Part shown: piece after piece, positions 55,775 to 56,710 of the stretch
Layout: each line of letters opens with the position of its first letter
How positions within the stretch are numbered: the stretch's first letter is position 1
Assembly (NCBI RefSeq): GCF_050920415.1
Contig: NZ_CP169309.1
Direction: 5' to 3' (one strand)
Length of the DNA stretch: 64,000 nucleotides
DNA from: Escherichia coli
GTDB taxonomy: Bacteria; Pseudomonadota; Gammaproteobacteria; Enterobacterales; Enterobacteriaceae
Position numbers and translations under genes: made by a program
The notes under the pieces: generated by a model
The model's input: only the letters and a program-made list of their open reading frames with translations
Told to the model about the DNA's origin: nothing
Database searches by the model: none

Positions 55775-56710
55775 TTATTTGTCTTTTTGTTTTTGTAATT
55801 TATGGATATTATCAGGCCCATATTTAATAACCATGCTTTTATAAAACGATGGCTCTATGTTTTTAGCGAATGCAAGTAGCCCAACTAATTTATTGTATTC
55901 GTCAGCAGGTAACTTTCCATTTATAAAATGATGGATCATGGCAGAGATTTTTCTTTTCCTTTCTCTACCTATAGATAATTTATTATCGTTTGTTAGAGTT
56001 ATACCAGTAACGTGACGGTTATGCCCTTTTGAAGAAAATACTGTTTTCTCATGATTGATTCTAATCTTACCTAAAGAATATTTTGGTAGTATGTTTTCAA
56101 GCATGTCAGGTATATCAAACAAAACATCTTTATTATTTGTTGAAAAGGTTAAGTCATCAGCATAACGAGTATAGTTAACGCCAATTTTAGAGCATATTTT
56201 TTGAACCTCAATATCCCAAAAGTACATCACAAAATTTGATATTAAAGGTGAACTTGGTGCTCCAATGCTTAATCTTAAATTACTATTTCTCTTGGATTTG
56301 AAGAATAATATATTCTCAAGTATTACTTTATCATCTGCAGTTAAATCAATATTTGCAAGTCGTAACTTTGAGAAAAATAGACGTGGTGTTATGCTAGGGA
56401 AAAAATTCTCAAAATCCATCTTCAACAAGTATTTAGTATGAAGATGAATTTGAGCATTGGTCTTAATGCTACTACCCTTTTTATATGCAAATGCGCATTC
56501 ATGAACGGGTAATTTATCGGATAAATACTCAGTAATTGCACGTTGTATAAATTTTAGCTCTTTCGATGGATGTGCAATAGTTCTCTTCTTGTCTGAGTTT
56601 CTTTTTGCGATTCTATATATTTTATAGCGATAAGGTGCCGTCAATGAAAAAGAAATGATTTCACTTTTCTTGGTTAATAGTAAGTCTGAAATATGCTGTA
56701 ATATGTCCAT
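55775..56710 (-). CDS. Retron-type reverse transcriptase
   Basis: 311 aa; RT active site YADD (…NYTRYADDLTF…), retron-typical VTG motif (…NRHVTGITL…) and a size typical of retron RTs; AT-rich codon usage. Confidence 0.85.
   Translation of the reverse strand: MDILQHISDLLLTKKSEIISFSLTAPYRYKIYRIAKRNSDKKRTIAHPSKELKFIQRAITEYLSDKLPVHECAFAYKKGSSIKTNAQIHLHTKYLLKMDFENFFPSITPRLFFSKLRLANIDLTADDKVILENILFFKSKRNSNLRLSIGAPSSPLISNFVMYFWDIEVQKICSKIGVNYTRYADDLTFSTNNKDVLFDIPDMLENILPKYSLGKIRINHEKTVFSSKGHNRHVTGITLTNDNKLSIGRERKRKISAMIHHFINGKLPADEYNKLVGLLAFAKNIEPSFYKSMVIKYGPDNIHKLQKQKDK

Follow-up and report, generated by a model that had tools for sequence, protein, structure and literature searches.

The locus described here raises the question of whether a reverse transcriptase (RT) gene found in Escherichia coli belongs to a retron and, if so, which retron it is and whether the remaining parts of the system are in place. 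In order to answer it, we analysed the whole 64,000-nucleotide stretch of DNA that contains the gene (hereafter referred to as the window).

The reverse transcriptase and its family

The initial annotation had reported an RT of about 310 aa carrying the YADD and VTG motifs, and a 311-aa ORF with both motifs was located at exactly 55775..56710, on the minus strand, which that annotation had not mentioned (Table 1). The YADD box occupied residues 183-186, within NYTRYADDLTF (window 56164..56153), and the VTG triad residues 234-236, within NRHVTGITL (window 56011..56003). In addition, the retron-specific NAxxH box was present as NAQIH (residues 85-89); the definitions of NAxxH and VTG were taken from PMC11701397. 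As had been claimed, the RT carried no maturase, endonuclease or Cas domain in the Pfam search, RVT_1 being its sole Pfam domain (residues 34-239, E 1.8e-21). Similarly, the gene proved to be AT-rich relative to the core genome: the G+C content was 0.29-0.36 over positions 55500-58000 versus 0.52-0.58 on either side, and that of the retron block was 32% versus 47.6% for the 64-kb window. The start of the RT gene overlapped the stop of the effector gene (TAATG, in which the last A of TAA is the first base of ATG) and a GAGGAG Shine-Dalgarno sequence was found upstream of it.

The RT matched the NCBIfam retron St85 RT model (NF038233, retron_St85_RT) over model positions 2-289 of 289 with 353.4 bits, the curated cut-off being 235 bits. 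In PADLOC-DB, the best models were RT_II-A (410 bits) and RT_I-A (401 bits), and the top 25 matches were retron RTs without exception (25/25). The family matches had E values between 1e-106 and 1e-124, far beyond chance. Two of the analyses that the initial annotation had proposed supported its assignment: in the HMM search, retron_St85_RT and RT_II-A scored best, and in the comparison with reference retron RTs, judged by the bit scores of a PDB sequence search, Ec86 (132 bits) and Ec67 (71 bits) proved to be distant, whereas Ec78 (274 bits) and Ec83 (245 bits) were the nearest of the named solved retron RTs. An entry described just as 'Retron' (PDB 22et_A, 276 bits) scored marginally above Ec78, while Eco8 (46 bits) and the Drt2 and group II RTs (around 25 bits) were also among the more distant solved RTs. 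On these sequence comparisons, the RT belongs with the clade-1 retron RTs, and St85 is listed as type II-A1, RT clade 1 (PMC7736814). Type I-A and type II-A1 retrons share this RT clade and one ncRNA type, the effector alone being different, which explains the near-tie between RT_I-A and RT_II-A (PMC7736814).

Table 1. Position of the retron parts and island features in the 64,000-nucleotide window
Feature	Position	Strand	Remarks
Left 14-bp repeat	52617..52630		Homology with island-less E. coli stops at 52616
Degraded replication module	53649..54950	-	Toprim/primase fragment and RepA/AAA_25 helicase split by an internal stop
Retron reverse transcriptase (RrtT/RT-Sen2 allele)	55775..56710	-	Intact ORF, 311 aa, ATG start
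Effector/toxin gene (RcaT, St85-family effector)	56710..57672	-	320 aa; NDT-like N-terminal domain
Terminator-like hairpin ACGAGCAA...TTGCTCGT, followed by a T run	57716..57748	-	Between msd and the effector gene
a1 repeat TAAAGAGT	57749..57756	-	Complementary to a2; read directly from the sequence
msd, msDNA template	57757..57834	-	Perfect 29-bp inverted repeat, 4-nt loop, one GATC duplex
msr, RNA part of msDNA	57837..57906	-	Rfam RF00170, 74.2 bits, E 1.4e-12, full model 1-69
a2 repeat ACTCTTTA	57906..57899	-	Inside msr
Predicted sigma-70 promoter of the retron operon	57913..57941	-	TTGAAA, 17-nt spacer, CATAAT
Island integrase (tyrosine recombinase)	57998..59217	-	phrog_1 integrase; annotated 'frameshifted'
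Right 14-bp repeat ATACAGAAGCTGGA (att core)	59548..59561		In the last codons of mnmE

The ncRNA, the effector and the relation to Sen2

The initial annotation had overlooked the effector gene and the ncRNA that complete the system. We detected msr and msd about 1 kb upstream of the RT, both above the Rfam gathering scores (52 for RF00170 and 80 for RF02058). The second of these matches, STnc400 (RF02058; 57710..57834, 122.9 bits), corresponds, by position and structure, to the msd hairpin plus the terminator-like hairpin. With the St85 model passed, NAxxH, YADD and VTG present and msr and msd found, the description of the gene as a retron RT was upheld. When folded as RNA, the segment 57705..57910 was far more stable than expected (z = -10.8) and none of 200 shuffled sequences folded as well. 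The fold had the classical layout of a retron ncRNA and comprised an a2/a1 helix, short msr stem-loops, the 29-bp msd stem and a 13-bp hairpin followed by a U run. The a2/a1 helix, formed by 8 bp between ACUCUUUA at 57906-57899 and UAAAGAGU at 57756-57749, appeared in both the MFE and the centroid folds; this pairing would close the ncRNA and set the branching G beside the template. From its position just 3′ of a2, the putative branching G is 57898 (in TTTAGCG). If the cDNA starts opposite the base 5′ of a1, the predicted msDNA is 85 nt long (57757..57841, plus strand); it folds as DNA with -36 kcal/mol (z = -14.1) and contains GATC at positions 30-33 and 48-51. Production of msDNA has been demonstrated experimentally for the St85 retron of Salmonella Typhimurium (PMC4569332).

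The predicted promoter was the top-scoring site in the region (10 of 12) and its -10 hexamer ended 6 nt ahead of the a2 repeat. Promoter-like sites were overall no more numerous in this region than expected by chance, and the promoter is credible because of its position and its conservation in Salmonella, not because of the number of sites. The terminator-like hairpin was the second hairpin of both the RF02058 match and the fold; a terminator scan flagged its stem, but on the plus strand. This hairpin probably dampens transcription that continues into the genes of the effector and the RT.

The effector gene lies between msr-msd and the RT gene, which comes last. Its product matched the NCBIfam model of the retron St85 family effector (NF038232) with 265.4 bits over model positions 2-275 of 277 (cut-off 100 bits) and the PADLOC model NDT_II-A with 300 bits. 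The Pfam search gave no significant domain for the effector in the copy of the database that was searched; the precomputed label PF28093:STM3845 came from a source other than that search. Among solved structures, the Ec86 effector matched residues 26-172, that is, the N-terminal half only (E 1.3e-10). Residues 100-109 read ESPGSLVELG, and the Glu that distinguishes deposited Ec86 effectors (FTELG in 7v9x, FTALG in 8qbl) aligned with Glu107. Hydrolysis of NAD(P)+ by the Ec86 effector, an N-glycosidase, takes place within RT-msDNA filaments (summarised in PMC12673091), while the biochemical activity of RcaT is still called unclear (10.1101/2024.12.20.629319). Because the distantly related Ec86 effector is an N-glycosidase, a nucleotide N-glycosidase is the most likely, yet unproven, candidate activity for RcaT; the NDT/N-glycosidase reading of the window effector draws on this distant similarity. 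Alignment with the Salmonella protein showed that Asp296, a residue of RcaT repeatedly mutated in Sen2 suppressor screens (10.1101/2020.06.22.160168), was retained.

We then compared the retron with two Salmonella enterica St85 loci (L002 and L003), fetched because they encode the effector. The msr-msd was 100% identical to both. From the promoter to a1, a single base differed, located upstream of a2, and the promoter itself was identical. The RT was identical to the Salmonella RT at 298 of 311 residues (95.8%) and the effector to its Salmonella counterpart at 307 of 320 (95.9%), which leaves 13 substitutions in each protein; these could alter the RT-RcaT pairing or the trigger range. In addition, both proteins shared 90%-identity clusters with hundreds of Salmonella enterica proteins, including those of serovar Typhimurium. 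All parts of the retron were present, intact and in canonical order. Because the ncRNA is identical and the proteins are about 96% identical to those of the Salmonella system, the window very probably holds a complete and apparently functional copy of Sen2 (St85), type II-A1, RT clade 1. This St85 retron is already known and already annotated, both proteins being assigned to the St85 family by NCBI; its identity with Sen2/St85, which makes it not a new retron, had escaped the initial annotation.

Retron-Sen2 of S. Typhimurium (STM3845 = rcaT, STM3846 = rrtT) has the same order, msrmsd - rcaT - rrtT, adjoins mnmE (thdF) as the window copy does and shares its att-like repeats. The G+C content was about 31-32% in both copies, and a value of 30.6% has been given for the Salmonella retron (PMC4569332). 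In contrast to Salmonella Sen2, the window copy is hosted by E. coli and sits on an island of 6.9 kb versus 4.5 kb, which keeps primase/helicase remnants and a C4/ash immunity region that were lost from the Salmonella copy.

Other retrons resembled the window retron to different extents. Retron-Eco1 (Ec86, type II-A3), which has an NDT/N-glycosidase effector and solved filament structures, is similar in its NDT-like effector and RT-msDNA antitoxin; the N-terminal domains of both effectors are homologous, with the E value given above, and the ESPGS..ELG motif is conserved in them. The Eco1 RT falls in another clade (132 bits versus about 274 for clade-1 RTs) and the Ec86 effector gene is located downstream of the RT, unlike the window effector, which lies between msd and RT. 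Both Eco1 and Sen2 are triggered by msDNA methylation (PMC12673091; 10.1101/2020.06.22.160242). Of the two systems, Eco1 is the one for which hydrolysis of NAD(P)+ has been demonstrated. Retron-Eco7 (Ec78) and Retron-Eco4 (Ec83), both type I-A, have the closest named solved RTs and share the RT clade and ncRNA type (PMC7736814), but their effectors are a PtuA ATPase and a PtuB HNH nuclease, which are absent from the window retron. Retron-Vmi1 (Vm85) of Vibrio mimicus presents the order msr-msd - orf323 - RT and an 85-nt msDNA, like the window retron, while it occupies dusA instead of mnmE and its RT shares 56.5% identity with RT-Sen2 (PMC11701397). Retron-Eco9 of E. coli NILS-16, the Sen2 relative characterised in E. 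coli, has the same architecture and RcaT-type toxin/antitoxin logic, with 49%, 43% and 58% identity to Sen2 in RT, RcaT and msd, respectively (10.1101/2020.06.22.160168). The near 96% protein identity and the identical ncRNA shared with Sen2 ruled out that the window retron is Retron-Eco9.

The island at the 3′ end of mnmE and its distribution

The retron is carried by an island with tnaCAB on one side and mnmE-yidC-rnpA-rpmH on the other. In island-less E. coli genomes, the match to the window ended at 52616 towards tna and resumed at 59538 towards mnmE, and the 6.9-kb island was bounded by the 14-bp direct repeat ATACAGAAGCTGGA (Table 1). This repeat, which reads TCCAGCTTCTGTAT on the mnmE strand, bounded the element with 0-1 mismatch in every related locus examined, including Salmonella (repeat positions 5112/9634 in L002, 4149/14098 in L004 and 4149/13323 in L006), and the island measured between 4.5 kb (Salmonella) and about 10 kb (L004). 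The repeat site overlaps the last 18 bp of mnmE/thdF, the attB of SGI1, which integrates there; a 'retron sequence downstream' has been noted for S. Typhimurium (PMC2297512). No tRNA gene was found at the island ends, which ruled out a tRNA-targeting island like phiR73/Ec73. At the left junction, comparison of window 52595-52630 with locus L012 (1040-1100) revealed that 19 bp (TAAGCGCGGTTACTTACCA) were absent from the window; in the empty E. coli site, they are found between the mnmE terminator hairpin and the repeat. Their absence reflects either a secondary deletion or an unusual crossover position.

The rest of the island showed several signs of decay. The integrase was frameshifted into pieces of 105 and 259 aa, versus an intact protein of 406 aa in the related loci L004, L006 and L009. 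The island of these three loci was fuller: it contained, in addition to the 406-aa integrase, another integrase-like gene and genes for a primase of 327 aa and an AAA_25 helicase of 350 aa. Relative to this fuller island, 1.56 kb had been deleted from the window island, with the breakpoint at 55016-55024. Downstream of the RT, we found an EFASI RNA (RF02957, 90 bits, gathering score 51) at 55042..55172 (minus strand). In L004, this RNA is located just upstream of a 291-aa Integrase_1/Phage_int_SAM_2 gene, and it is orphaned in the window because the 1.56-kb deletion removed that gene. A C4 antisense RNA (RF01695, 72 bits), its a1b1 target element (RF03163, 47 bits) and a sub-threshold isrK match were identified at 52923..53116 (plus strand), adjoining an 'ash family' pseudogene. 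This C4/a1b1/ash region, at the tna-proximal end of the island, is a remnant of P1/P4-type immunity. Since the integrase is frameshifted, 1.56 kb are deleted and the helicase is interrupted by a stop, the retron is an intact module carried as cargo by a satellite-like island that is itself in decay.

Related loci presented further variations. L004, from a non-E. coli host, contained at 11930-13252 an extra gene for a 440-aa KAP-family NTPase (phrog_8614, 331 bits), absent from the window, which may be a second cargo or defence gene. In the E. coli locus L010, the RT was immediately followed by an IS with an rve-family transposase (8239-9344), which took the place of the distal island half. In another E. 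coli genome (GCA_000190955.1; L008, 6040-6405), the RT was identical and the effector gene was called at 121 aa. This cut of the effector indicates that the Sen2 system is not always maintained and suggests that the toxin has been inactivated in some carriers.

In a near-identity search, the window retron was present in one out of 5,426 complete E. coli genomes (strain MFDS1022581). A distant search found other St85-family retrons in about 164 complete E. coli genomes, as short matches only, with 66-78% identity. A common E. coli retron was consequently ruled out by the single near-identity match and the short stretches found otherwise. In a larger collection, the exact RT protein occurred on at least 103 contigs. 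Over 4,352 bp, the window island and its Salmonella counterpart shared 96.2% identity, against only 80-88% per 100 bp for the mnmE genes next to them. Likewise, L004, L006 and L009 encoded an RT protein identical to that of the window, whereas their mnmE was about 83% identical and their flanking genes differed. Near-identity of island and RT next to diverging mnmE and flanks indicates recent horizontal spread, the Sen2/St85 retron having moved horizontally into E. coli. The island flanks themselves (52150-52616 and 59538-59800), which correspond to the tnaC upstream region and the mnmE 3′ end, shared only about 92-97% identity with the majority of complete E. coli genomes, a low value for core E. 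coli DNA; this could reflect a divergent lineage or recombination tracts brought in with the island.

Alternative readings, proposed working and implications

Other readings of the locus were weighed against Sen2. In one of them, the gene encodes a defence RT of a kind other than retrons (Abi, DRT/UG or DGR) or the RT of a degenerate group II intron; the matches to the group II RT/maturase model TIGR04416 (45 bits), Drt2 (34.7 bits) and Drt4 (21.3 bits) might be taken as traces of that origin, but weak sub-threshold matches of this kind are expected for any RT and they fell far under the respective cut-offs (300, 390 and 450). Moreover, the top PADLOC matches were retron RTs throughout, the protein carries the retron-specific NAxxH and VTG motifs, an msr/msd ncRNA is present and the Rfam scan gave no group II intron RNA. 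By the initial annotation's own account, a retron would be contradicted if group II, DGR or Abi RTs gave the best profile matches and no retron ncRNA could be detected; neither was the case. Profile scores and ncRNA thus rule out this reading, which retains practically no probability. A type I-A retron, similar to Ec78/Ec83 and with Septu PtuAB effectors, is very improbable as well: the RT_I-A score close to that of RT_II-A and the Ec78 and Ec83 RTs as closest solved structures are compatible with it, but the RT clade and ncRNA type common to I-A and II-A1 explain the score near-tie (PMC7736814), and the neighbouring gene encodes an effector of the St85/NDT type and not an ATPase plus HNH pair. 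The NDT-like effector is the only co-oriented ORF in the operon, which contains no PtuA- or PtuB-like ORF, and effector identity ruled this reading out.

The retron could also be a non-functional relic, in which case this strain would carry the Sen2 sequence without its expression or activity, as for the remainder of the island. The frameshifted integrase, the internal stop of the helicase, the truncated primase and the sister locus L008 with its truncated effector are in line with such decay. Against it, both retron ORFs are full length relative to their profiles, the promoter and ncRNA are identical to those of a working Salmonella system and the exact RT protein recurs across the larger collection, so that we regard a relic as unlikely and retain a complete Sen2 copy as the preferred reading.

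Sen2 has been described as a tripartite toxin/antitoxin system in which the RT gives specificity (10.1101/2020.06.22.160168). Its toxin is triggered by Dam methylation of the msDNA GATC and also by RecE degradation, RacC blocks it and abortive infection has been proposed (10.1101/2020.06.22.160242). In Salmonella, loss of msDNA leads to RcaT-dependent growth defects in the cold and under anaerobiosis and to poor gut colonisation (PMC4569332; 10.1101/2020.06.22.160168). Proteins about 96% identical and an ncRNA identical to those of the tested Sen2 suggest the same tripartite behaviour for the window retron; msDNA production, toxin/antitoxin behaviour, triggers and the enzymatic activity of RcaT are attributed to this strain by analogy. 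A single promoter would drive msr-msd, then the rcaT-like effector and then the RT. Following the published pathway, the RT would bind the msr stem-loops. With the 2′-OH of the branching G next to the a2/a1 helix as primer, it would reverse-transcribe msd, and the resulting msDNA hairpin, about 85 nt long, would be matured by host RNase H and Exo VII. The RT-msDNA complex would then bind and neutralise the NDT-like toxin RcaT, as deduced from the Sen2 experiments. Phage functions would inactivate this antitoxin, either by Dam methylation of the GATC duplex of the hairpin or by RecE degradation of the msDNA, and the freed RcaT would halt the growth of the infected cell, resulting in abortive infection.

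Tentatively, and with some doubt, Sen2 might be viewed not as a fixed feature of the Salmonella chromosome but as cargo. Its carrier would be a small integrative satellite similar to P4, which has an integrase, a primase-helicase and C4/ash immunity, inserts at the 3′ end of mnmE (the SGI1 hot spot) and has recently moved among Salmonella, E. coli and other Enterobacteriaceae. Were this so, the fuller copies in L004, L006 and L009 may still be mobile, and the 13 substitutions per protein may have altered which triggers or blockers act on the E. coli allele.

Sen2 is among the best-characterised retrons and both proteins already bear the St85 family annotation, so the locus has little discovery value. 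Its value is contextual: the Sen2 module occurs with an identical ncRNA in E. coli and other enterobacterial backgrounds whose mnmE differs by about 17%, which documents recent horizontal transfer on an mnmE-targeting island. The natural alleles and decay states (intact island, deleted island and truncated toxin) could be used to compare RT-RcaT specificity and the cost of carrying the toxin. Altogether, a mildly new aspect lies only in the view of Sen2 as cargo carried by an integrative island that targets mnmE and is shared among members of the Enterobacteriaceae.
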